38,711 nt of DNA from an uncultured Gammaproteobacteria bacterium (lineage in GTDB: Bacteria; Patescibacteriota; Patescibacteriia; Patescibacteriales; GWC2-42-12). Both the position numbers and the translations under genes were made by a program. The DNA is taken from positions 1 through 38,711 of the forward strand of contig CAZLKB010000003.1 of the NCBI GenBank assembly GCA_964560005.1. Reading direction: 5' to 3'. The notes under the pieces were generated by a model, which made no database searches, was not told the DNA's origin, and was given only the letters and a program-made list of their open reading frames with translations. This document shows positions 3,251 to 37,664 of the stretch, piece by piece; positions within the stretch are counted from its first letter, which is position 1; every line of letters starts with the position of its first letter.

Positions 3251-3943
3251 ATGATCAGCATAATTATACCCGTCTATAATCAAGCCGAGCACTTAGACAG
3301 ATGCCTGGCTGGTATAAAAAATCAAACCTATAATAATTATGAAATTATCATTATTGACGACGGCTCAATAGATAATATCAAGCCGGTGATAGAAAAATAT
3401 AAACAAATATTTAACCTGAAATTATCTTATTTTGAGCAGGAAAACCGAGGCGCCAGCGCGGCCAGAAATCGAGGCGCTAAAATAGCCAGAGGAGAATATC
3501 TGATTTTTTGCGACGCGGACATTGTCATGGAGCCGAATATGCTCCGAGCCATGCTGGATACGCTTAAGCAAAACCCGGCCGCCAGCCTTTGCTATTCATC
3601 TTTTATCTGGGGCAAAAAAAAGTTTATACTTTGGCCGTATAACGCGGAAAGATTAAAAAAGATGCCCTATATCAACACTTCTTCGCTAATGAGAAAAGAG
3701 CATTTCCCCGGCTTTGATGAAAACTTAAAACGGTTTCAAGACTGGGATCTTTGGCTGACAATGCTGGAGCGGGGCCATACCGGAGTTTGGATTAATCAAA
3801 TATTATATAGGGTTAATTTGGGCGGCGTTCAAACCATGAGCCGCTGGCTGCCGGCGCTAACTTATAAATTACTGCCGTTTTTATCAATGGTAAAAAGATA
3901 TAACCAAGCTAAGGAAATAATCAGGAAAAAACATAATTTATAA
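3251..3943 (+). CDS. Glycosyltransferase family 2 (GT-A)
   Basis: 'SIIIPVYN', 'IDDGS', 'DAD' and 'QDWDLWL' motifs. Confidence 0.93.
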   Translation: MISIIIPVYNQAEHLDRCLAGIKNQTYNNYEIIIIDDGSIDNIKPVIEKYKQIFNLKLSYFEQENRGASAARNRGAKIARGEYLIFCDADIVMEPNMLRAMLDTLKQNPAASLCYSSFIWGKKKFILWPYNAERLKKMPYINTSSLMRKEHFPGFDENLKRFQDWDLWLTMLERGHTGVWINQILYRVNLGGVQTMSRWLPALTYKLLPFLSMVKRYNQAKEIIRKKHNL

Positions 3944-6441: not shown

Positions 6442-6523
6442 ATTAACACCAGTTTGAATTGGCTAATTTTATTAATAGGATAATCTTGAAATTTAATTCA
6501 ACTTTTTTTATTACATTTTTCAT

Positions 6524-6619
6524 CTACAAATCAACAAATCTTATTACAAATATACAAATACTGCAAAACGCGGCTATTTAATAATTTGTATATTTGTGAA
6601 TTAATTTGTTGATTTGTAG
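6524..6619. repeat. AT-rich long hairpin in the lysS leader
   Basis: Perfect 16-bp inverted repeat (6524-6539/6604-6619) plus an inner perfect 14-bp inverted repeat (6546-6559/6584-6597). Confidence 0.85.
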
Positions 6620-6630
6620 GAGTAATTTTT

Positions 6631-8091
6631 ATGATAAAAATAAACGAGCGCGCCGATCGCCTAAAAAAACTGGCTGAACTTAAAAAACTGGGCATTAATC
6701 CATTTCCGGCAAAAGCTAAAAAAACTTATTCAATCAATCAAGTCTTGACTGATTTTGAAGTTTTGCAAAAAAATAATACTGAAATTTTTCTGGCCGGACG
6801 GCTTAGGAGCTTGCGGGCGCACGGCAATTTAACCTTTACCAGCTTAGACGACGGCAGCGGCAAAATCCAACTGGCTTTTTCTAAAAAAGAAATCGGCGCT
6901 GACAGCTATAAAACTTTTTCAAAATATTTAGATATCGGCGACTTCGTGGAAGCCGGCGGCGTCTGCTTTTTAACCCATAACGGCGAAAAAAGCCTTATGG
7001 TAAAAAATTGGAAACTACTGACTAAGACTCTTAGGCCTTTGCCGGATAAATGGCACGGCATCGCGGACGAGGAAGAAAAATTCAGAAAACGATATCTGGA
7101 TATATTATTTAATCCGGAGGTTAAAGAAATATTTATTAAGCGCGCCAGGTTCTGGCAGGCCATGCGTGAATTCATGGTTAGCCAGGGCTTTTTAGAAGTT
7201 GAGACTCCGGTTTTGGAAAACACAGCCGGCGGCGCCGACGCCAGGCCGTTTGTTACTCACCATAACGCGCTGGACTTGGATGTTTATTTAAGAATTTCCA
7301 TGGGCGAGCTTTGGCAAAAACGCCTGATGGTGGCCGGCTACGAGAAAACTTTTGAAATCGGGCGCATGTTCAGAAACGAAGGCATGGACGCCGAGCATCT
7401 TCAAGATTACACGCAGATGGAATTTTACTGGGGCTACGCGGATTATGAGATGGGAATGAAATTGGTTGAGAAATTATTCAAGCATATCGCTAAGCAAACT
7501 TTCGGCACCCTAAAGTTTAAAATTAAAAACTTTGACATTGACTTGGATAAAGCTTGGGAAAAATATGATTATCAAAAAACGATTCTAGAAAAAACCGGAG
7601 TGGATATTTTAAAAACAACTGAAAAAGAAATTATCAAAAAATTAGACGAGCTAAAAGTCAAATACGATAAAAAGGGCTTTAATATTACGCGCGGCATTGA
7701 TAATCTTTGGAAATATTGCCGCAAATCAATCGCCGGCCCGGGATTTTTGATTAACACTCCGGTAACGATTTCTCCCTTAGCTAAAAGGAGTGACGATAAC
7801 CCGGAAACGACTCAACGCTTTCAGGTAATCTTGGCCGGATCGGAATTAGGCAACGGCTATAGCGAACTAAACGACCCGATTGATCAGGCCGAAAGATTTA
7901 AGGCACAGCAAGACCTGCGCGACGCCGGCGACGAGGAAGCGCAGATGTTTGACCATGAATTCGTAGAAGCGCTAGAATACGGCATGCCGCCGACCTGCGG
8001 CTTCGGCTTGAGCGAACGGCTGTTTTCCTTTTTAATTAACCGGCCGATGCGCGAATGCCAGATTTTTCCGTTAATGAAACCAAGAAACTAA
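6631..8091 (+). CDS. lysS: Lysine--tRNA ligase (class II)
   Basis: OB-fold N-terminus, 'FLEVETPVL', 'GGADARPF', 'FRNEG' and 'YGMPPT.G.G' motifs. Confidence 0.98.
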   Translation: MIKINERADRLKKLAELKKLGINPFPAKAKKTYSINQVLTDFEVLQKNNTEIFLAGRLRSLRAHGNLTFTSLDDGSGKIQLAFSKKEIGADSYKTFSKYLDIGDFVEAGGVCFLTHNGEKSLMVKNWKLLTKTLRPLPDKWHGIADEEEKFRKRYLDILFNPEVKEIFIKRARFWQAMREFMVSQGFLEVETPVLENTAGGADARPFVTHHNALDLDVYLRISMGELWQKRLMVAGYEKTFEIGRMFRNEGMDAEHLQDYTQMEFYWGYADYEMGMKLVEKLFKHIAKQTFGTLKFKIKNFDIDLDKAWEKYDYQKTILEKTGVDILKTTEKEIIKKLDELKVKYDKKGFNITRGIDNLWKYCRKSIAGPGFLINTPVTISPLAKRSDDNPETTQRFQVILAGSELGNGYSELNDPIDQAERFKAQQDLRDAGDEEAQMFDHEFVEALEYGMPPTCGFGLSERLFSFLINRPMRECQIFPLMKPRN

Positions 8092-20828: not shown

Positions 20829-20855
20829 TTAGCACTCCGAGCTTGAGAGTGCTAA
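20829..20855. promoter_or_regulatory. CIRCE element (HrcA operator)
   Basis: Exact TTAGCACTC-N9-GAGTGCTAA just downstream of the -10, upstream of a chaperone gene. Confidence 0.96.
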
Positions 20856-20884: not shown

Positions 20885-20941
20885 AAAAATGCTAGCTCCG
20901 CTAGCACCCCGCAGATGCGGGGTCATTGCAGAGCAATGACA
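20885..20941 (+). repeat. 57-bp triple-hairpin repeat, copy 1, within an AT-rich quasi-palindrome
   Basis: Identical to 34280-34336. Confidence 0.92.
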
Positions 20942-21031
20942 ATGCAAAATTAAAAATTAGAACAATTAAAAATTTTACATTTTTAAACTGTCATTTTACA
21001 TTTTGATATTTAAATTTTAAACTTTAAACAT

Positions 21032-23665
21032 ATGTTTGACAAATTTACTCATAAATCCCAGGAAGCCATTATCAACGCCCAGATAATCGCCCAAGATAAC
21101 GGCCAGCAGCAAATTGAGGCTCTGCATGTCTTGGCTTCGCTATTAACCCAAAGCGAAAGCTTGATCAAGCCTATTCTGGAACGGTTAAATATTAATTTTA
21201 AAACCATACAACAAAATACCATCGGCTTCATAAACAAGTTGCCTAAGACTTCTATCTCCGCCAATGTCGGTACGGTTCAAGGCACGGCTGAAGTAGCCAT
21301 GATTCTTGAACGATCAAAAAAAGAAGCTGATAAAATCGGCGATGAATATATTTCCACCGAGCATTTATTCTTGGCCCTGATCGGTATTAAGTCAAAGGCT
21401 CAAGAGATTTTAATTAACGCCGGCGTAGCTTACGAAGAAGTTCTAAAAATCTTAGCCAAACTAAGGGGCTCCTCGACCATTACCGACCCGGAGCCGGAAT
21501 CAAAATTCCGAGTCTTGGAAAAATACGCGATTAATTTAACCGAGCAGGCGCGCCAGGAAAAATTGGATCCGGTCATCGGCCGGGACGATGAAATCAGGCG
21601 CATTATGCAGGTTCTCTCCAGGCGCACTAAGAATAATCCGGTTTTAATCGGCGAAGCCGGAACCGGCAAAACCGCCATTGTTGAAGGCCTGGCGCAAAGG
21701 ATAATCTCCGGAGATGTGCCGGAAACCCTAAAAGGCAAAGAACTGATTAGCTTGGATCTGGGCGCCTTGGTGGCCGGTTCAAAATTCAGAGGTGAATTTG
21801 AAGACAGATTAAAAGCGGTTTTAAAAGAAATTAAAGCCCAAGGCGGCAATATTATCTTGTTTATTGACGAATTACACACCTTGGTGGGCGCCGGCGCGTC
21901 CGAAGGCTCTATGGACGCCTCTAATATGCTTAAACCGGCCTTAGCGCGCGGCGAGCTTAGGGCTGTGGGCGCGACTACCACCAAGGAGTTTCAAAAATAT
22001 ATTGAAAAAGACACGGCTTTAGAAAGACGCTTCCAGCCGATTTATGTTTCCGAACCGACGATTGAAGATACTATTACCATGCTAAGAGGCATAAAAGAAA
22101 AATATGAAGTCCATCACGGCGTGCGCATTACCGATAATGCCCTGGAAGCCGCCGCCAAGCTGTCGTCTCGCTATATTACCGATAGATTCCTGCCCGATAA
22201 AGCCGTGGATCTGGTTGACGAAGCTTCTTCGGCTTTGCGCATGGAAATAGATTCCTCTCCTTATGAGCTGGATGTTTTAAAGCGTGAAGTTAAAAAATTA
22301 GAAATTGAAAAAGCCGGCCTTTTAAAAGAAAACCGCCCCTCCGGCAAACTTAAAGAAATCAACAAAAGATTGGCTCAGATCAAAGAGCAGGCCAACCAGT
22401 TGGAACTCCACTGGCACAACGAAAAAAACGCTATTGCTAAGATCAGACAGTCTAAAAAGCAAATTGACGAGCTTAAAGCTAAAGCGGAAATCATTGAACG
22501 CCGCGGCGACGATCTCACCCAAGTGGCTGAAATTCTGTATTCAAAAATTCCGACCCTGAAGCAGGAAATCAAGCATCAAGAAACCGAGCTGGTTAAAATT
22601 CAAAGCGCCGGCCAGAGAATTTTAAAAGAAGAAGTCTCCGAGGAAGACATCGCTAAAGTTGTCTCGCGCTGGACCGGCATACCGGTAGCAAAAATGCTGG
22701 AATCGGAAATAAAAAAACTGGCCAAAGCCGAAGAAGTTTTAGCTAAAAGGGTGATCGGCCAGGATAGCGCGATTAAATCGGTAGCCAACGCCATCAGGCG
22801 CTCTCGCGCCGGCATCAGCGAGGAAAAAAAACCGATTGGCTCCTTTATGTTCGTCGGACCGACCGGAGTCGGCAAAACCGAACTGGCAAAAGCCTTGGCC
22901 GAATTTATGTTTAACGACGAAAGCGCTTTAATCAGGCTTGATATGAGCGAATTTATGGAAAAGCATTCGGTGGCGAAAATAATCGGCTCCCCTCCCGGCT
23001 ATGTCGGCCACGACGAAGGCGGACAGCTAACCGACAAAATCAGGCGCCGGCCTTATAGCGTGGTGCTATTTGATGAAATTGAAAAAGCCCATCCGGAATT
23101 TTTTAATATTTTGCTCCAAATTTTAGACGATGGCAGGCTGACTGATTCAAAAGGCAGAATAGTGAACTTTAAAAACGCCATCATTATCATGACCTCTAAT
23201 TTAGGCAACGAAATTATTAAAGAATATTCCATCGGTTTTACCGATACCACCGACGAGAAAAAAACCGCTGATTTACGGACCGATGAAATGAAAGAAAAAA
23301 TCGATCACATACTTAAAGACCATTTTAAGCTGGAATTTTTAAACCGCGTTGATGAAATCGTAATATTTAAGAGCTTAAACAAGGAAGTATTATCTAAAAT
23401 CGTTGATCTGGAGCTGGGCAAGGTTGAAAGAAGATTAGAAAATAAAATAATTAACCTGAAAATAGCGGCTAAAGTCAAAAAGATGCTCTTGGAAAAAGGC
23501 TATGATTTGACTTATGGCGCCCGACCGCTGAAACGGGTGATCCAAAATATGATACTGGACGAGCTGGCGCTGGAAATCATTGAGGGCAAAATTAAGGCCG
23601 GCGATAAGGTTGAAATTGATTTGGGGTTTAAAGATAAAATCACTTTAGCGGTAATGAAAAAATAA
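21032..23665 (+). CDS. clpB: ATP-dependent chaperone ClpB
   Basis: Clp N-domain, two AAA+ modules (GEAGTGKT, GPTGVGKT), coiled-coil middle domain and upstream CIRCE. Confidence 0.96.
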   Translation: MFDKFTHKSQEAIINAQIIAQDNGQQQIEALHVLASLLTQSESLIKPILERLNINFKTIQQNTIGFINKLPKTSISANVGTVQGTAEVAMILERSKKEADKIGDEYISTEHLFLALIGIKSKAQEILINAGVAYEEVLKILAKLRGSSTITDPEPESKFRVLEKYAINLTEQARQEKLDPVIGRDDEIRRIMQVLSRRTKNNPVLIGEAGTGKTAIVEGLAQRIISGDVPETLKGKELISLDLGALVAGSKFRGEFEDRLKAVLKEIKAQGGNIILFIDELHTLVGAGASEGSMDASNMLKPALARGELRAVGATTTKEFQKYIEKDTALERRFQPIYVSEPTIEDTITMLRGIKEKYEVHHGVRITDNALEAAAKLSSRYITDRFLPDKAVDLVDEASSALRMEIDSSPYELDVLKREVKKLEIEKAGLLKENRPSGKLKEINKRLAQIKEQANQLELHWHNEKNAIAKIRQSKKQIDELKAKAEIIERRGDDLTQVAEILYSKIPTLKQEIKHQETELVKIQSAGQRILKEEVSEEDIAKVVSRWTGIPVAKMLESEIKKLAKAEEVLAKRVIGQDSAIKSVANAIRRSRAGISEEKKPIGSFMFVGPTGVGKTELAKALAEFMFNDESALIRLDMSEFMEKHSVAKIIGSPPGYVGHDEGGQLTDKIRRRPYSVVLFDEIEKAHPEFFNILLQILDDGRLTDSKGRIVNFKNAIIIMTSNLGNEIIKEYSIGFTDTTDEKKTADLRTDEMKEKIDHILKDHFKLEFLNRVDEIVIFKSLNKEVLSKIVDLELGKVERRLENKIINLKIAAKVKKMLLEKGYDLTYGARPLKRVIQNMILDELALEIIEGKIKAGDKVEIDLGFKDKITLAVMKK

Positions 23666-28678: not shown

Positions 28679-29743
28679 TTAGAGTTTAATCCCGAACGCT
28701 TCAATTTTTCTATAAAGCGTTTGCCGGCTGATGCCGAGTCTTTTGGCGGTTTGAAATTTATTACCTCCGGTCACCCTTAGCATTTTCACAATCGCCCCTC
28801 TTTGTTCTCGTTCAAGAATATTCACCCCCTCTGCCTCTGCCTCCTGCTCCGAGACTTTTTCTTGCTCGGTTACTTCAGGAGTGATGCGTAAGTGGCAAAC
28901 ATCTATCAGATGATTATTAGCCAGAAGCACGCCTCGGCGAACCGTGTTTTCCAGCTCGCGGACATTGCCGGGCCAGCTGTACCTCATTAGCGCGTCCAGC
29001 GCCTGTTCGGTGAAACCATTCGGCTCCTTATTTTCCTCCGCCGCCCAGAAACGCATATAGCCTTCGGCCAGCGGTAGAATATCGTCCGGCCTATCTCTAA
29101 GCGGAGGAATTTTAACGATCATGCCGTTTAGGCGGTGCATTAAATCCGGCCGCAGCTTTCCTGTTCGTATCGCCTCGTCTAACGGGCGATTGGTTGAGGA
29201 GATTACCCGGCAGTTAACCTTGTATTCAACCGTGCCGCCCACCGGACGGACTCGGCCTTCCTGCAGGACTCGCAAGAGTTTAGCCTGCGCGGCCAGATGC
29301 ATTTCCGAAACCTCGTCCAGATACAGCGTGCCGTTTTCGGCTTCCCGAAACAACCCTCTGCGTTCTGCGGTGGAACCGGTGTATGCACCCTTGAGCGAAC
29401 CGAATAGCTCGCTTTCAATCAATTGCTCCGGCAATGCCGCGCAGTTGACGCCGATGAACATTCTATTGGCTCGGATACTGTATTGATGGATAGCGCGGGC
29501 AATAACTTCTTTGCCCGTGCCTGATTCCCCGATGACTAAAACCGGGATGTCGCTACACCTTAGCTTTAGCGCTGTCTGAACGATTTCCCGCATCAACTCG
29601 CTCTCCAGCACTACCGGTTTATCGCGGTGCAGCTTGAGCCCTGGCTCTGCCGGCTGATCGCCCTGGCCGTTGCCGTTGCCGCCGTTGTTGTTGCCGCCGT
29701 TGCCGTTGCAGCGATTTCTGGAAATTTCTACGATTCCATTCAT
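28679..29743 (-). CDS. Sigma54-interacting (bEBP/NtrC-family) AAA+ regulator with Fis HTH and no sensor domain
   Basis: GESGTGKE, ESELFG, GAYTGS loop, LYLDEV, 'RPDLMHRLN', WPGNVRELEN and 'GNKFQTAKRLGISRQTLYRKI'. Confidence 0.93.
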   Translation of the reverse strand: MNGIVEISRNRCNGNGGNNNGGNGNGQGDQPAEPGLKLHRDKPVVLESELMREIVQTALKLRCSDIPVLVIGESGTGKEVIARAIHQYSIRANRMFIGVNCAALPEQLIESELFGSLKGAYTGSTAERRGLFREAENGTLYLDEVSEMHLAAQAKLLRVLQEGRVRPVGGTVEYKVNCRVISSTNRPLDEAIRTGKLRPDLMHRLNGMIVKIPPLRDRPDDILPLAEGYMRFWAAEENKEPNGFTEQALDALMRYSWPGNVRELENTVRRGVLLANNHLIDVCHLRITPEVTEQEKVSEQEAEAEGVNILEREQRGAIVKMLRVTGGNKFQTAKRLGISRQTLYRKIEAFGIKL

Positions 29744-30657
29744 ATTATTTCCTTTCGGCCAGCAGACCCGTTTGAGGCGACCGGCTGATTAATCCATTCC
29801 ATGACGGCGGTTAAGTTTTTTACCGCCGCCTTGAGCTTAGAGGCGACTTCTCTTACTTGTTCAGCCTGGCCGGCCGCGATAATCTCTTTGAATTCCGCCT
29901 CCGGCATGCTGGCCAGCTTATCCAGCCTTGCCACCACGCTTCCAATCGTCAGCGCGAATTCCCTAAACAAGGCCGTCGGCTTTTTCTGCCGCTTGGAAAG
30001 GCAGGTTTGCCTGCCCGTGGCTTGAGTTGCCAAGCGGCGGACATTTCCAACTGACAACCGCCTTTCAAGAGTCGCCTTAGCCAAGGCGACTTTATCGCGA
30101 TCAGGCGCTTTCATTAACTCCAAGAATTGGGATAAAGCCAGCCTATGATCCTTGGGTGTTTCCGGACCAATGAGCTTTTGCAGTTCCAGAGGCGCTTTGA
30201 GTATTTGCAGTCTTTTCCAAACCCAGCCTTGGGTTTGCCCGACCCTCTTCGCCGCTTGGCTCTGGGACAGGTCGCGTTCGTCCATCAGCCTTTTCAGGCC
30301 ATGCGCCACATCCCAGTCCGTAAGCGAATCCCTGGCGATATCTCCAACAAAGGCGATTTCAAACTGCTCCATATCGTCAGCCACTCTAACTACCAAGCAC
30401 AGGACTTCGGTTAATCCAAGTATCTGGGCCGCGTGCCAGCGATTTTCTCCGTTGACCAGCTTATACTTAACGCCGTCAACTTCCTTTTCCAATTCCTTTA
30501 CCATGAGCGGTTCGTTGATCCCGCCCGTCTCCCGGATAGAATCAACCAGGCCTTGACGAAATTCCGGGTCAACAATCGTCCTGGGCTGGTTTTTGTTGGG
30601 CCTGATAAAGCTGACTTTAATCATCTGCATCCGTACTTCTCTATTTATGTCTTTCAT
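29740..30657 (-). CDS. ParB/RepB/Spo0J-family protein (CTPase fold + HTH)
   Basis: 'IRPNKNQPR', 'L..SI...G...P..V', 'GENRWHAA' and HTH 'LSQSQAAKRVGQTQGWVWKRL'. Stop overlaps the next start (ATGA). Confidence 0.9.
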   Translation of the reverse strand: MKDINREVRMQMIKVSFIRPNKNQPRTIVDPEFRQGLVDSIRETGGINEPLMVKELEKEVDGVKYKLVNGENRWHAAQILGLTEVLCLVVRVADDMEQFEIAFVGDIARDSLTDWDVAHGLKRLMDERDLSQSQAAKRVGQTQGWVWKRLQILKAPLELQKLIGPETPKDHRLALSQFLELMKAPDRDKVALAKATLERRLSVGNVRRLATQATGRQTCLSKRQKKPTALFREFALTIGSVVARLDKLASMPEAEFKEIIAAGQAEQVREVASKLKAAVKNLTAVMEWINQPVASNGSAGRKEII

Positions 30658-30736
30658 TCCTTGCCTTGCCTTTCTTTTATTTTGTTTTTTTGGTTGTTGT
30701 TATTTGTTTTTGTTTGTTTGATTTGTTCGATAAATT

Positions 30737-30788
30737 ATTACCGCAGCTTTTAAACTCTCTTTTTAGCGAATCTAAAAGCTGCGGTAAT
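30737..30788. repeat. Perfect 16-bp inverted repeat in the leader of the ParB operon
   Basis: ATTACCGCAGCTTTTA (30737-30752) and TAAAAGCTGCGGTAAT (30773-30788), 20-nt spacer. Confidence 0.85.
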
Positions 30789-30938
30789 TAGCCTAATTTT
30801 TAAGGTACTAGCTTTAACTTTCTTTATGTCGTAAAAAATTTTTTCATGACTATATCATTCCGCTCTTACTGCGAATTCTATCATGAAACATAAAATAACA
30901 CCAAAATACTCCGAAAAAGGCACAAATTCTGACTTTTC

Positions 30939-30967
30939 TTTATACCATAAGATTTAATCTGCGTCAA
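30939..30967 (-). promoter_or_regulatory. Sigma70-type promoter for the ParB-bEBP operon
   Basis: TTGACG-17 nt-TATAAA with an extended TG. Confidence 0.5.
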
Positions 30968-30989
30968 GCCGGAGGTAAAAATACCCCCC

Positions 30990-31058
30990 TTGACTAATTT
31001 TAATTTTTATATTAAGATATAAAGTTAATTTTTGGTGAACTTTTATTTGTGGTATAAT
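30990..31058 (+). promoter_or_regulatory. Two candidate sigma70 promoters for the structured leader and FN3 gene
   Basis: TTGACT-17-TAAGAT (30990-31018) and TG-G-TATAAT (31050-31058). Confidence 0.55.
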
Positions 31059-31091
31059 AAGTCTGCCAAAAACGCACATTAAAATAAATCC

Positions 31092-31260
31092 AGGCGCCTT
31101 CTCCGAGGGTATTTACCCTCCGGGAAGATAAAAACTTCCATTCATCCAGCGCCAAACCGGTGCTGGGTTCAGTCCCGCGGCAGAGTCCGCGGGGCATTCC
31201 GGAAGGTGCTAAATACAATTTTGGGTATGATGCCGAAAATAAACTAGCGGCATCGCGCCT
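31092..31260 (+). ncRNA. Candidate multi-branched structured RNA (unassigned motif)
   Basis: Closing helix AGGCGC/GCGCCT encloses five hairpins, with a possible 6-bp loop pseudoknot. Folded by eye only. Confidence 0.45.
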
Positions 31261-31309
31261 AAACAGCAACAAAAAAACAAACAACAAAAGAAAGAAAGAA
31301 AGGCAATCA

Positions 31310-32575
31310 ATGAAAAAAATAATAATTCCCTTGGTCATGGTTATCCTGGCGTTCTGCACCCTAACCAGGGTGACGGCCGCGGAAAGATCCGTCACTTTGG
31401 CTTGGGATCCAAGCCCGTCAACAAATTTAGCTGGCTACAATGTTTACTACGGCGCAGGTTGCGGGCAATATACTAATATAGTCAACGCCGGAAACACCAC
31501 TACGGTAACAATCCCCGGCCTAGTTCAAGGTGTGACTTATTTCTTCGCCGCCACGGCGTACGACACAAGCGAGCTGGAAAGCGATTTTTCCAACGAAATA
31601 GTCTACACCGTTCCCGAAGAGAACTCTTTGGACGAATCATACTTGGCTTCGGCCGAGTATTCAATTGACCATGCCAACGGCTCGATCGTCGGCCTGATAG
31701 AGGCTTTGCCGGCCGACCCTAGAGAGGTGGGCTGGGCTAAAGACCTGGGTCCAGTGGCGGGTGGACAGACGGTAGGCGTCAGCGCGCGCATGTTTTACAG
31801 CGATAGCGTCAGCGCGCCGATTTCGCTCTATGTCGCGGATAGTCTGACCGGCAACTGGCTTAGCCCGGAGAGAGTGGTTTTTATTGACTACACCTACGGG
31901 AGTAATGCCGTAGAAATGATCGTCAACAACTCCTGCGAGGCTCCGAGACTCTATGTGTCAACCGGACACAGAACAGGAGTCTATGAGTTTCAGCGGATTC
32001 AGGTGTCGGTCAACACACCGGCAATTAATCCGACCACGGATCTGTACCTGCGCCAGCTCTTGGTTAAACAGCTGACCGGCCTTTATTCGGCTGAATGGGT
32101 CTGGGTGCCGGCGGCCGGCTCGCAAGGGTATGTGGTAAGGCTAGCTCTTACCAGGAGTGAAATTGAAAAAGGAGCGGCCGGCAATCTGCTTTACCAGCAA
32201 ACTTTGTCCGCCGGCCAAACAAGCTACCGGCGCAACATAGACGCCACCCTTTACAACGGCGTCTACCTGTCCGTCGCTTCATTAAGCGGCGGCGTAGAAA
32301 GCGCTCCCTGGATCACCTGGTATCTGCCGGGAGATATATATAACACGGCGGATGAGGATATTCCGCCGTTATGCTTCCAGGCGCTGGTTGACGCGACGGA
32401 TGTCAATTACGCTTACACCGGCTACACCTCGCTCCGACGGGTGCCGGCCTTAACGCCGGGCCTACCCGCGGGACGCGAGGAACGGACCGATATTGACAAC
32501 AACACTTACGCCGGACGCGTAAGCGACTATAGCTTTATCAGAAGCCAAAATCTGAATGCCAGGAGAATGAGATAA
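31310..32575 (+). CDS. Secreted fibronectin type III protein with a possible C-terminal dockerin-like region (start re-called at 31310)
   Basis: GAAAGG before ATG 31310, signal peptide MKKIIIPLVMVILAFC, FN3 'SVTLAWD.....LAGY.VYYG...TYFFAATAYD..ES.FSNE', and paired Asp-rich 'PGDI...VDATD' / 'DIDNN...D' segments. Confidence 0.8.
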   Translation: MKKIIIPLVMVILAFCTLTRVTAAERSVTLAWDPSPSTNLAGYNVYYGAGCGQYTNIVNAGNTTTVTIPGLVQGVTYFFAATAYDTSELESDFSNEIVYTVPEENSLDESYLASAEYSIDHANGSIVGLIEALPADPREVGWAKDLGPVAGGQTVGVSARMFYSDSVSAPISLYVADSLTGNWLSPERVVFIDYTYGSNAVEMIVNNSCEAPRLYVSTGHRTGVYEFQRIQVSVNTPAINPTTDLYLRQLLVKQLTGLYSAEWVWVPAAGSQGYVVRLALTRSEIEKGAAGNLLYQQTLSAGQTSYRRNIDATLYNGVYLSVASLSGGVESAPWITWYLPGDIYNTADEDIPPLCFQALVDATDVNYAYTGYTSLRRVPALTPGLPAGREERTDIDNNTYAGRVSDYSFIRSQNLNARRMR

Positions 32576-32590
32576 ATCAAACTCCTGCCC

Positions 32591-32624
32591 AGCCACAAAC
32601 AAGAATGTTTGTGGCTCTTTTTTT
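32591..32624 (+). terminator. Intrinsic terminator
   Basis: AGCCACAAAC/GTTTGTGGCT perfect stem plus T tract. Confidence 0.88.
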
Positions 32625-32639
32625 AGCCGAACTAGCGGT

Positions 32640-32785: not shown

Positions 32786-34249
32786 ATGAAGTTAGCGCGA
32801 CCGGCCATAATTATTTTCCTTTGCTTGATCGTCTTCTTAAGCTTTGAGATAAGCTCCGCCCGCGCCGAAGGGTTTGATCCTAATAATATCATCAGCGATT
32901 TGGAAATCCTTGATTATAGCGCCATGGATTTAAATGATATTCAAAAATTTTTGGAAAACAAGGGCAGTTACCTGGCTGATTATTCCTGCTCTGACGCCAG
33001 CGGCGTTACCAGGAAGGCGTCGGAAATAATTTATAATGCGGCGGTAAAAAGCTATGATTGCGATGGAGCTGGTTTAAGCGATAACCCAACCGATGAAGAA
33101 AGAGCTCTAAAATGCCGAAAAGTCACCATCAACCCGAAATTCCTCTTGGTGCTTCTGCAAAAAGAGCAAAGTTTAATTGAAGAGTCCTCGCCCAGCCAAA
33201 AAAACTTGGATTGGGCGACCGGCTACGGCTGCCCGGATTCGGGCGGCTGCAATCCCCGCTGGCAGGGCTTTGGCAAGCAAATTAATTCCGCAGCTTTGCA
33301 ATTCAGAGATTATTTGGATCGGCCGCAACTTTATACCTACCGAGCGGGTGAGACTTATACGGTTAAAAATACCAATCAGCCTGATTCTACCGTAACGCCG
33401 GCGAACCAGGCTACGGCCGCGCTTTACAACTATACGCCGCATGTTTATAACGGCAATTATAACTTTTATAAAATTTGGCGCAGATACTTCGCTAAAGCCT
33501 ACCCGGACGGCTCGCTTTTGCAGGTTGACGGCGAAGCCGGGGTTTGGCTTCTGCAGAACGGGCTGAAGAGGCCATTCCTATCTAAGAGCGCTCTAGCCTC
33601 CCGTTTTGATATTAACAAGATCATTAAAATAAATAAATCTGATTTAGATAAATACGAGACCGGTGTGCCGATTAAATTCCCCCAATACTCTTTAATTAAA
33701 TCGCCGCGCGGAACTATTTTCCTGTTAGTCGATGATAAAAAACGCGGTTTTACTTCCATGGAAGCGTTTCGCAGAATGGGCTTTAACCCCAGCGAGGTCA
33801 TAAACGCCAGCTGGGATGATATTAATTATTACGCTGACGGCACTCCGATTACGGCCACCTCCACCTATCCGACCGGCGCTTTACTGCAAAATAACAAAAC
33901 CGGCGGTATTTATTATGTAATTGAAGGAATAAAATCCCCGCTAGTTGACAGAATATTTTTAACCACCGCCTTTAAAAATAAAAAAATTATAAAAGTATCG
34001 CCGGCCGAACTTGAGCAATATCCGGCTATAAAACCGTATTTATTCGCCGACGGAGAACTGCTGAAAACTAAAGATTCTCCTTACACCTATGTAATTTCCG
34101 GCGGCAAGAAACTGCTTATATCATCGGATAAAATATTCAATAGCCTTGGCTTTAAAACGGAAAATATCATAATCGTGCCTTCAAGTCTATTGTATTTATA
34201 CGAAGCCGGCGCGCCGATAACGGAAGCCGTGGTCAATGACGAGCCATAG
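32786..34249 (+). CDS. Secreted protein with a conserved N-terminal domain (possibly lysozyme-like) and C-terminal surface repeats
   Basis: Signal peptide, 'INPKFLLVLLQKEQSLI...ATGYGCPD...GFGKQINSAA', then repeated 'DGSLL...V.L...G.KR.F' units. Preceded by TG-A-TATAAT 8 nt upstream. Confidence 0.75.
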   Translation: MKLARPAIIIFLCLIVFLSFEISSARAEGFDPNNIISDLEILDYSAMDLNDIQKFLENKGSYLADYSCSDASGVTRKASEIIYNAAVKSYDCDGAGLSDNPTDEERALKCRKVTINPKFLLVLLQKEQSLIEESSPSQKNLDWATGYGCPDSGGCNPRWQGFGKQINSAALQFRDYLDRPQLYTYRAGETYTVKNTNQPDSTVTPANQATAALYNYTPHVYNGNYNFYKIWRRYFAKAYPDGSLLQVDGEAGVWLLQNGLKRPFLSKSALASRFDINKIIKINKSDLDKYETGVPIKFPQYSLIKSPRGTIFLLVDDKKRGFTSMEAFRRMGFNPSEVINASWDDINYYADGTPITATSTYPTGALLQNNKTGGIYYVIEGIKSPLVDRIFLTTAFKNKKIIKVSPAELEQYPAIKPYLFADGELLKTKDSPYTYVISGGKKLLISSDKIFNSLGFKTENIIIVPSSLLYLYEAGAPITEAVVNDEP

Positions 34250-37078: not shown

Positions 37079-37112
37079 TGCGCTTTAATGATATTCATAT
37101 TCGCGTGTCCGG

Positions 37113-37173
37113 CCCCGCATTTGCGGGGTAGCGCCGGCCGCCCGTCTCGCCTGAAGGCGAAGCCGAGGTGGAC
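37113..37173. repeat. Cluster of GC-rich palindromes after fmt
   Basis: CCCCGC-ATTT-GCGGGG (37113-37128) and CCGTCTCGCCTGAAGGCGAAGCCGAGGTGGAC (37142-37173). Confidence 0.7.
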
Positions 37174-37358
37174 GAAGCGAAAATTAAACAAAGCGCCCGC
37201 ACATTATTCATATGCGGACGCTCCAATCCCCATGCATTGCTATTATTCGTATTCAATACTTATAACAGCAGACATTCGTTGAGACACAGACTAATCCATA
37301 TCTCAACTCTAATTTCAGTCTAGAGCCAGCGTCGTAAATCAGTCAAGAGGAGAAACTA

Positions 37359-37410: not shown

Positions 37411-37482
37411 GCCGAATTCGTCTAGTGGCTAGGACACATGGTTCTCATCCATGAAACACGGGTCCGATTCCCGTATTCGGTA
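37411..37482 (+). tRNA. tRNA-Glu, anticodon CUC, no encoded CCA
   Basis: Acceptor GCCGAAT/ATTCGGT, D arm GTC..GAC, anticodon arm CATGG-TTCTCAT-CCATG, T arm ACGGG-TCCGATT-CCCGT. Confidence 0.95.
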
Positions 37483-37493
37483 CAAAATCAAAC

Positions 37494-37528: not shown

Positions 37529-37603
37529 ATGAACAACCAATCGATAAAAACGATAAAGAGCGATTTTAGCATGATGAAAAGCCTGAAGATGTCCTGCGGC
37601 TAG
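37529..37603 (+). CDS. Putative leader peptide, 24 aa (MNNQSIKTIKSDFSMMKSLKMSCG)
   Basis: Translated by hand. The stop codon overlaps the 5' arm of an antiterminator-like helix. Confidence 0.55.
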   Translation: MNNQSIKTIKSDFSMMKSLKMSCG

Positions 37604-37664
37604 GGTTGTCTTAAATTATTTGCCAATTTAAAACAGCCCTATGCCAAAGGACTGTTTTTTGTTT
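37601..37664 (+). terminator. Overlapping antiterminator/terminator (attenuator-like)
   Basis: 37601-37617 pairs with 37625-37641. Alternatively 37630-37640 pairs with 37648-37659, followed by a T tract. Confidence 0.7.

Follow-up and report, generated by a model that had tools for sequence, protein, structure and literature searches.

Among riboswitch aptamers, a junction closed by a P1 helix is found in the lysine family (RF00168), where it is five-way, and in the SAM-I family (RF00162), where it is four-way. Hairpin-rich units of another kind, namely the Rickettsia palindromic elements, MITEs, REP/BIME and the yeast mitochondrial GC clusters, form families that are defined by many copies per genome. 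For the CPR/Patescibacteria, whose genomes are tiny, few regulatory RNAs are known and no genetics is available; their variable surface proteins are believed to attach them to host cells. GC-rich islands in AT-rich intergenic regions serve as the signal by which structured ncRNAs are found (PMC6429828, PMC8632094, PMC11109978).

The present work concerns a 38.7-kb stretch of DNA (the window), in which a 120-nt, lineage-specific, GC-rich insertion (31090-31209, + strand) holds a whole multi-hairpin domain in the leader of a gene for a secreted protein with an FN3 domain. The insert resembles each of these systems in part. Like the lysine and SAM-I aptamers, it is a sense-strand element of a 5′ UTR, is predicted to form a compact junction in which the 3′ strand of P1 has an alternative partner, and is much GC-richer and more structured than its surroundings. 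Unlike them, it has no match to any Rfam covariance model at E ≤ 10 and no cross-species conservation was found for it, it has no terminator or SD-sequestering platform, and the downstream gene encodes a surface protein rather than an enzyme or transporter. With the palindromic repeats it shares a size of ~100-150 nt, a GC-rich composition in an AT-rich setting, a clean insertion with a short direct repeat, stable hairpins and open frames; it differs from them in that one copy was found, in its poor terminal inverted repeat at the DNA level, and in the strand bias of its mismatches to G.U. It also looks like the candidates of the GC-IGR pipelines, being a GC-rich structured island upstream of a gene; those candidates, however, are named motifs only when several representatives allow covariation analysis, and the insert is a singleton (PMC6429828, PMC8632094, PMC11109978).

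The host belongs to Candidatus Falkowbacteria (Patescibacteria/CPR). Its ClpB shares 90% identity with the protein from Falkowbacteria RIFCSPLOWO2_02_FULL_45_21, and the top ClpB matches that carry names are nearly all Patescibacteria or Falkowbacteria, with a few labelled only ‘bacterium’. Upstream of clpB (21032-23665), we note a perfect CIRCE/HrcA operator (20829-20855, TTAGCACTC-N9-GAGTGCTAA) and, at ~20895-20945, a second GC-rich hairpin cluster. The GC-rich block itself sits within a 652-nt intergenic region flanked by two divergent genes, a ParB-like gene (29740-30657, - strand) and the FN3 gene (31310-32575, + strand; ATG at 31310, stop at 32575). The latter encodes a secreted protein of 421 aa with one FN3 domain and a signal-peptide-like N-terminus. 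Directly after it, an intrinsic terminator can be read from the sequence (32591-32625, + strand; AGCCACAAACA...TGTTTGTGGCT followed by a T run), and the gene is therefore taken to be monocistronic. Farther upstream, the - strand encodes a sigma-54-type activator, a second ParB-HTH protein and a DUF5018/Ig-like surface protein of 1130 aa.

The closest relative (L121, ClpB 90% identical) has, immediately after clpB, an orthologue (76% identity) of the window gene at 32786-34249, and ~9 kb of the window (23.7-32.7 kb) is missing at this place (L121 12628-12792). This segment is a variable surface-protein island, GC-richer than the rest of the window, whose cargo comprises the DUF5018/Ig-like surface protein, the two ParB-like proteins, the activator, which is without a receiver domain, and the FN3 gene. 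Between the divergent genes there is also a 13-bp inverted repeat (30740-30752/30773-30785, ACCGCAGCTTTTA...TAAAAGCTGCGGT, followed by TAATTAGCCTAATTTTTAAGGTACT). It is kept in a homologous locus, L004 (~3693-3745), beside a sigma-54-type activator gene, and may serve the activator or the ParB-like protein as an operator or an upstream activating site. The neighboring activator gene also prompted a search for a sigma-54 promoter; the intergenic region has no match, and over the whole window there are fewer matches than expected by chance.

The leader of the FN3 gene can be divided into parts, most of which are older than the insert. A promoter scan located an upstream promoter-like site, TTGACT-17-TAAGAT (30990-31018, + strand), in a block kept in homologous loci, where it reads TTGACT/TTGACA...TAAGGT/TAAAGT (L001, L004, L012). 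Downstream, an extended -10 promoter, TGgTATAAT (31050-31058, + strand), was read from the sequence; it is kept as TGGTATAAT/CGGTATAAT/TGATATAAT in L003, L004 and L005, and we infer that transcription would start from it at ~31064-31067. Alignments further define a 5′ leader box, GCCAAAAACGCACATTAAAA (31065-31084, + strand), with the homologue version ACCAAAACYGYTCTTTAAA. This ~19-nt box, at the extreme 5′ end of the predicted mRNA, is kept among FN3 loci even though the identity of their proteins is only 50-60%. Also kept is the sequence that separates the two promoter-like elements (AAAGTTNATTTTTGG); it and the box are unexplained conserved leader or promoter signals.

On the 3′ side, and outside the insertion, lies an ancestral hairpin (UUUGGGUAUGAUGCCG...CGGCAUCGCGCCUAA, 31220-31263, + strand) that is kept in L001, L004 and L012; its folding z-score is -4.05, and its consensus has 14 pairs with one-sided changes only. 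The hairpin is followed by an unstructured, G-poor, A/C-rich tract (31261-31303, + strand), which is kept in L004 and others, is unpaired in every predicted fold, and ends in a purine-rich SD-like GAAAGG (31298-31303). The tract could be a translational enhancer or a Rho-loading site. A CrcZ-like Rfam match in it was weak and reflects A-rich composition only. No intrinsic terminator-like site was found within 30600-31400, and both the SD-like GAAAGG and the AUG are unpaired in the two folds of the insert described below.

For comparison, the DNA around seven FN3-protein homologues was collected and the leaders were aligned with that of the window. The FN3 protein has full-length homologues at 47-59% identity, and identities among the FN3 proteins (46-65%) place them all at roughly equal distances. 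Five leaders (L001, L003, L004, L005 and L012) have in common the extended -10, weaker in L012, and the leader box, and three of these five (L001, L004, L012) also have the 3′ hairpin, GGGUAUGAUGCC...GGCAUYGUACCC. In the syntenic L119, only part of the box is kept. The GC-rich block 31090-31209 is missing from all six homologous leaders (those five and L119); its sole other carrier, L013, is an identical contig from the same organism in another assembly. When 31090-31209 and one copy of TAAAT are excised, the distance from the -10 element to the hairpin becomes 60 nt, as compared with 54-62 nt in the homologues. Given the near-equal distances among the FN3 proteins, a single gain is more parsimonious than many losses, and the alignments thus favor an insertion gained once, in the window’s lineage. 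The leaders of this gene family do turn over fast: L003 and L005 are without the ancestral hairpin, and L119 has a different one.

These observations bring up the possibility of a passenger insertion, that is, the footprint of a mobile or foreign element (MITE-, REP- or Rickettsia-palindromic-element-like, or a retro-inserted structured RNA) that is co-transcribed and has no regulatory role. A clean, lineage-specific insertion whose excision gives back the ancestral spacing is what this explanation predicts, and so are the GC content of 0.61, against 0.20 and 0.35 in the flanks, the location in a variable island missing from the closest relative, and the AT-rich leader as a tolerant landing site. 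The insert is moreover flanked by TAAAT on the left (31085-31089) and on the right (31210-31214), both on the + strand. These direct repeats are possibly a target-site duplication, with the weight of the match reduced by the frequency of TAAAT in the 38.7-kb window (3.2 per kb).

Other origins for the insert were considered and rejected. Local duplication of the leader found no support in Smith-Waterman comparisons with the window’s own and the homologous leaders; the lowest single p was ~0.02, against L012, which is non-significant after allowing for six comparisons. The upstream region of L006 was aligned with the insert by MAFFT, but it is a small minus-strand ORF with a z-score of -1.8 and no homologue of the insert. 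Two further observations concern the family’s leaders. At the place of the window’s ancestral hairpin, L119 (1075-1160), from another Patescibacterium, has a different small hairpin (AAGCGCGAAAGGCGUGCUU), the faint resemblance of which to hairpin H3 of the insert (see below) is non-significant (p ~0.27). The FN3 homologue P0006 (JGI 3300075153, a 2951-bp contig) has an upstream intergenic region of 495 nt, the longest of the family, which might hold another leader insertion.

Thermodynamic folding strongly supports a structured element on the gene’s strand, as an earlier note on this region had suggested for a stretch of ~170 nt (31092-31260). The folding energy of this 169-nt stretch is -82.3 kcal/mol, as opposed to -53.1 ± 4.1 kcal/mol for dinucleotide shuffles (z -7.1), with 0 of 200 shuffles as good; the comparison with shuffled controls had been named beforehand as a test. 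For the insert by itself z is -6.7, and for the whole leader it is -7.9. When stability was scanned in sliding windows over the entire 38.7 kb, the region came out among the most stable on the + strand given its G+C, with a residual z of -3.2 to -3.6, and three other sites are equal or lower. The lowest value given its G+C belongs to 6511-6630, an intergenic stretch ahead of the gene at 6631-8091 (GC 0.23, -37.9 kcal/mol), where the residual z is -4.7 for the + strand and -4.1 for the - strand. Because the two strands are symmetric, this suggests a long AT-rich palindrome.

In the minimum-free-energy structure, the insert is closed by P1, a 10-bp helix of seven Watson-Crick and three G.U pairs formed by GGCGCCUUCU (31093-31102) and GGAAGGUGCU (31201-31210), both on the + strand, with pair probabilities of 0.81-0.99 in the leader context and at least 0.96 in the core. 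P1 encloses four hairpins on the + strand: H1 (GAGGGU-AUUU-ACCCUC, 31105-31120), which is extendable to 31098-31127 in an alternative fold; H2 (GGAAG-AUAAAAA-CUUCC, 31123-31139), with 5 bp (31123-27/31135-39), a 7-nt loop and p 0.89-0.97; H3 (31144-31168), with 10 bp, the loop AAACC and p 0.83-1.0; and H4 (31172-31195), with 9 bp, the loop CAGAGU and p 0.98-1.0. The insert is thus modeled as a self-contained five-way junction in which P1 closes H1-H4 with p 0.8-1.0 in the leader context. A closing helix with four hairpins in a row is also the plan of a class II tRNA cloverleaf, and H2 is tRNA-like in having a 5-bp stem and a loop of 7 nt whose second nucleotide is U and whose sixth is A. The likeness ends there: neither ARAGORN nor Rfam calls a tRNA, P1 has 10 bp, the stem and loop sizes of H1, H3 and H4 are wrong, and there are no D- or T-loop signatures.

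Several discrepancies were found between this structure and the earlier model, which held that a single multi-branched, riboswitch-like RNA of ~170 nt is closed by 31092-97/31255-60, forms a pseudoknot between a loop and the 3′ tail, and switches to 31094-101/31202-09. The complementarities it named are all exact: 6 of 6 pairs for 31092-97/31255-60, 11 of 12 for 31098-109/31116-127, 8 of 8 for 31146-53/31159-66, and 7 of 7 each for 31174-80/31187-93 and 31229-35/31248-54. The GC-rich character of the segment amid AT-rich sequence likewise stands. The single ~170-nt unit does not, however, because its 3′ part is the 31220-31263 hairpin that is kept in leaders without the rest, and the GC-rich part is a separate 120-nt insertion. 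Only in the trimmed 169-nt frame does the proposed closing helix compete (-82.1 versus -82.3 kcal/mol, p 0.6); once the natural flanks are included, forming it costs 2.7-5.5 kcal/mol and p drops to ≤ 0.006. The 3′ strand of this helix is part of the ancestral hairpin, which is found in leaders free of the insert. In its favor, the three positions at which GCGCCU of the window differs from GUACCC of L001 and L012 create a perfect 6-bp match with 31092-97; against this, L004 varies at the same place (GCCUCU) without having the insert.

The remaining elements of that model met with mixed success. The helix it presented as an alternative, GCGCCUUC with GAAGGUGC (31094-101/31202-09, exactly complementary), exists; yet it is not merely alternative, being part of the 10-bp helix 31093-102/31201-210 with p ≥ 0.96. 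Its five helices in the junction are real as pairings, and the set is incomplete, as hairpin 31123-27/31135-39 was missed. The GGAA-capped helix at 31194-209 is worth only -2.2 kcal/mol and excludes P1. For the pseudoknot, UAUUUA (31110-15) and UAAAUA (31210-15) are exact complements; the second of them, TAAATA, is made of A and U only and, at 1.1 occurrences per kb of the window, is at chance level. It overlaps the 3′ end of P1 and the TAAAT repeat. The pseudoknot is neither supported nor excluded. The resemblance to SAM-I that had been seen in sequence fragments found no echo in the covariance models, with no SAM family match at E ≤ 10, nor did any other riboswitch model match. Taken together, we consider the ~170-nt architecture improbable.

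The pairing itself bears on the level at which the structure has been maintained. The five helices contain 40 pairs, 34 of them Watson-Crick and six G.U, with no A.C or transversion mismatch. In a DNA palindrome undergoing neutral decay, A.C would be expected about as often as G.T, in addition to transversion mismatches, and the probability that all six are G.U is ~1/64. Furthermore, the - strand of the 169-nt stretch folds with -70.5 kcal/mol and z -3.8, a difference of 12 kcal/mol from the + strand. The G.U-only imperfections and the strand difference therefore point to selection of the pairing at the RNA level, on the sense strand; such selection may act here or may have acted in the donor of the segment. 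For the passenger explanation, these numbers cut both ways. The ends of the insert do form an imperfect inverted repeat (P1), and the otherwise perfect helices are as expected for a young insertion, but the terminal repeat is only 7/10 at the DNA level, and mismatches confined to G.U on the sense strand, none of them a transversion, are not what it predicts.

The same data weigh on a function at the DNA level, whereby the four palindromes would be operators for the two ParB-like proteins and the sigma-54-type activator of the island. The genes for a ParB-like protein and the activator do lie directly upstream in divergent orientation, and each hairpin is a dyad. Nevertheless, the four dyads have neither sequence nor spacing in common, and all of them sit within a fifth, an arrangement characteristic of folded RNA; as DNA, the dyads are weakened by their G.T positions; there is no sigma-54 promoter nearby; and L004, which has the same activator gene beside its FN3 gene, is without the block. 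An operator array is, for these reasons, a very remote prospect.

The insert also encodes a second fold. Four segments, a (CCUUCUC, 31097-103), a′ (GGGAAG, 31122-27), b (CUUCC, 31135-39) and b′ (GGAAGG, 31201-06), make up complementary CUUC/GAAG pairs, and the 5′ half of the P1 3′ strand may accordingly pair with CUUCC (31135-39) instead. Within the insert, a-b′ with a′-b gives the five-way junction (-65.9 kcal/mol), and a-a′ with b-b′ gives nested three-way junctions that are ~3 kcal/mol less stable (-63.1 kcal/mol). In growing-chain folding, the a-a′ and b-b′ pairings are predicted to form until nucleotide 31207 and the five-way junction once 31210 has been made. The two modeled folds are compatible with a switch and are no demonstration of one. 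A two-state strand exchange, such as the earlier note had suggested, is thermodynamically conceivable.

Relatives of the insert were sought at several levels. Over the whole window, Rfam 15 (4227 models) at the gathering threshold detected only tRNA-Glu, and at E ≤ 10 on 501 nt and 191 nt around the element it returned only noise, the best of which in the region were Guanidine-I on the wrong strand (18.9 bits versus a gathering threshold of 63) and a toxic sRNA (15.1 versus 50). SAM-I (RF00162) was matched neither at the gathering threshold nor at E ≤ 10 on either length. Identities as SAM-I, c-di-GMP-I/II, lysine, self-cleaving ribozyme, tRNA, SRP or EAR were rejected, no Rfam 15 score being at or near gathering. 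The expectation that the element belongs to no known family was thereby borne out, with no Rfam family at threshold and no relevant one at E ≤ 10. ARAGORN found only tRNA-Glu (37411-37483), the one site that the Rfam tRNA model matches as well, and made no tRNA or tmRNA call on the insert. GC-rich hairpins (GGCCCCGCATTTGCGGGGT and others) lie between fmt and this tRNA-Glu(CTC), and the strong hairpin and T run after the tRNA are probably a terminator (37100-37230 and 37560-37660); none of these hairpins resembles the insert. A retron origin was also looked into: the neighbors (FN3, ParB-like, sigma-54-type activator and DUF5018 protein) include no reverse transcriptase, and the retron families of Rfam 15 gave no match.

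At the sequence level, blastn-short against the window and all fetched loci recovered only the element itself and the identical L013, and blastn against phage and plasmid records gave no match. The copy number is one in the 38.7-kb window, zero in 126 kb of related loci, and zero in 43 kb of the closest relative. Larger collections were scanned with exact seeds of 15-21 specified bases, the source genome being absent from them. Four seeds gave 0, 29, 6 and 2 matches in viral contigs, none extending past the seed; GGYGCYGGGTTCAGTCCCG gave 58 matches in GTDB species genomes, all high-GC chance matches; and ATAAAAANNNNNATTCATCCAGCG gave nine chance matches in JGI metagenomes. A single-sequence covariance model (R1) was run over ~0.95 Mb: FN3 loci (126 kb), loci from the seed scans (751 kb), L119, the closest relative and, with filters off, the window itself. 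Nothing but the element itself scored above 14 bits. Three reading frames are open across the insert. When these translations, along with fragments of two other frames, were compared with 5.8 billion proteins, nothing was found at E ≤ 10. Against 1.84 billion representatives, the three open-frame translations gave three matches; the best, a tandem-repeat protein, was discarded as spurious because the alignment spans the artificial junction between two frames.

These searches are sensitive to near-identical copies and not to distant structural homologues. Covariation is accordingly not assessable, rather than negative, because no relative of the insert was found. The earlier note had held that a lack of homologues or of covariation should count against its proposal; no homologue was found, and given that the scans needed exact seeds in collections without the source genome, we read the proposal of a structured RNA as unrefuted. 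The want of a further copy in the window, the related loci or the closest relative, in phage and plasmid records, in the seed scans of three collections, or among 5.8 + 1.8 billion predicted proteins also speaks against the passenger explanation, as does the ordinariness of TAAAT at 3.2 per kb.

A separate, trans-acting small RNA, processed out of the leader or ending before the ancestral hairpin, would account for a self-contained, closed and very stable domain just past a strong promoter-like element. Against it are the missing terminator after the domain, the missing second copy or homologue, and the lack of a tRNA/tmRNA call or an Rfam gene family. We hold this to be somewhat more improbable even than the ~170-nt architecture.

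What can be stated securely is descriptive: the window carries an RNA fold on the sense strand that is self-contained, specific to one lineage, set into a conserved leader and without a known family. As to its role, we tentatively favor, at rather less than even confidence, a cis-acting leader RNA module that modulates the FN3 mRNA, because the pairing is strand-biased, the modeled junction is closed, the insert is placed behind a promoter, and an alternative fold is encoded. Thus, the AT-rich 5′ leader of the secreted FN3 gene would have acquired the 120-nt GC-rich insertion ~25 nt past the inferred transcription start, between the conserved leader box and the conserved hairpin. The insert would be transcribed within the mRNA and fold alone into the compact five-way junction, the second fold via the CUUC/GAAG segments forming first during transcription. 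The module might then be a ligand- or protein-binding domain, or a stability or processing element, acting on FN3 mRNA expression; the likely routes would be mRNA fate or the neighboring conserved hairpin, and not the ribosome-binding site.

Having favored the cis-acting module, we would note what stands against it. The searches run returned no second example, and hence there is no conservation or covariation support. No expression platform is recognizable: there is no terminator within 30600-31400, and GAAAGG and the start codon are unpaired. With its start ~25 nt from the inferred 5′ end, the domain is not ideally placed for a stem that protects this end. The perfect helices could equally mean a very recent, undecayed insertion, and six orthologous leaders do without the insert. 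The missing platform and the three frames open across the insert favor a passenger insertion, which we consider nearly as likely as the cis-acting module. A more far-reaching idea is that the junction is the first member of a new class of functional RNA in CPR, namely a ligand-sensing aptamer, a ribozyme or a portable RNA cassette. In the last form, transposition or retro-insertion could carry it into the 5′ UTRs of surface-protein genes that evolve fast, where it would rewire their control. We regard this as unlikely, if a shade less so than the ~170-nt architecture. The insert is real and well folded, but as a singleton it is a lead that falls short of a discovery and does not yet attest to a new RNA class.

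The gain of the insert in the leader of a CPR surface-protein gene would nonetheless be one of the rare cases in which nature shows a leader before and after it acquired a structured module, with the six insert-free orthologous leaders as built-in controls. If the domain binds a ligand or a protein, an episymbiont would be controlling the expression of a surface protein by a signal to which the domain points; if it is instead a mobile palindromic element, it would be a new type of repeat in CPR genomes.
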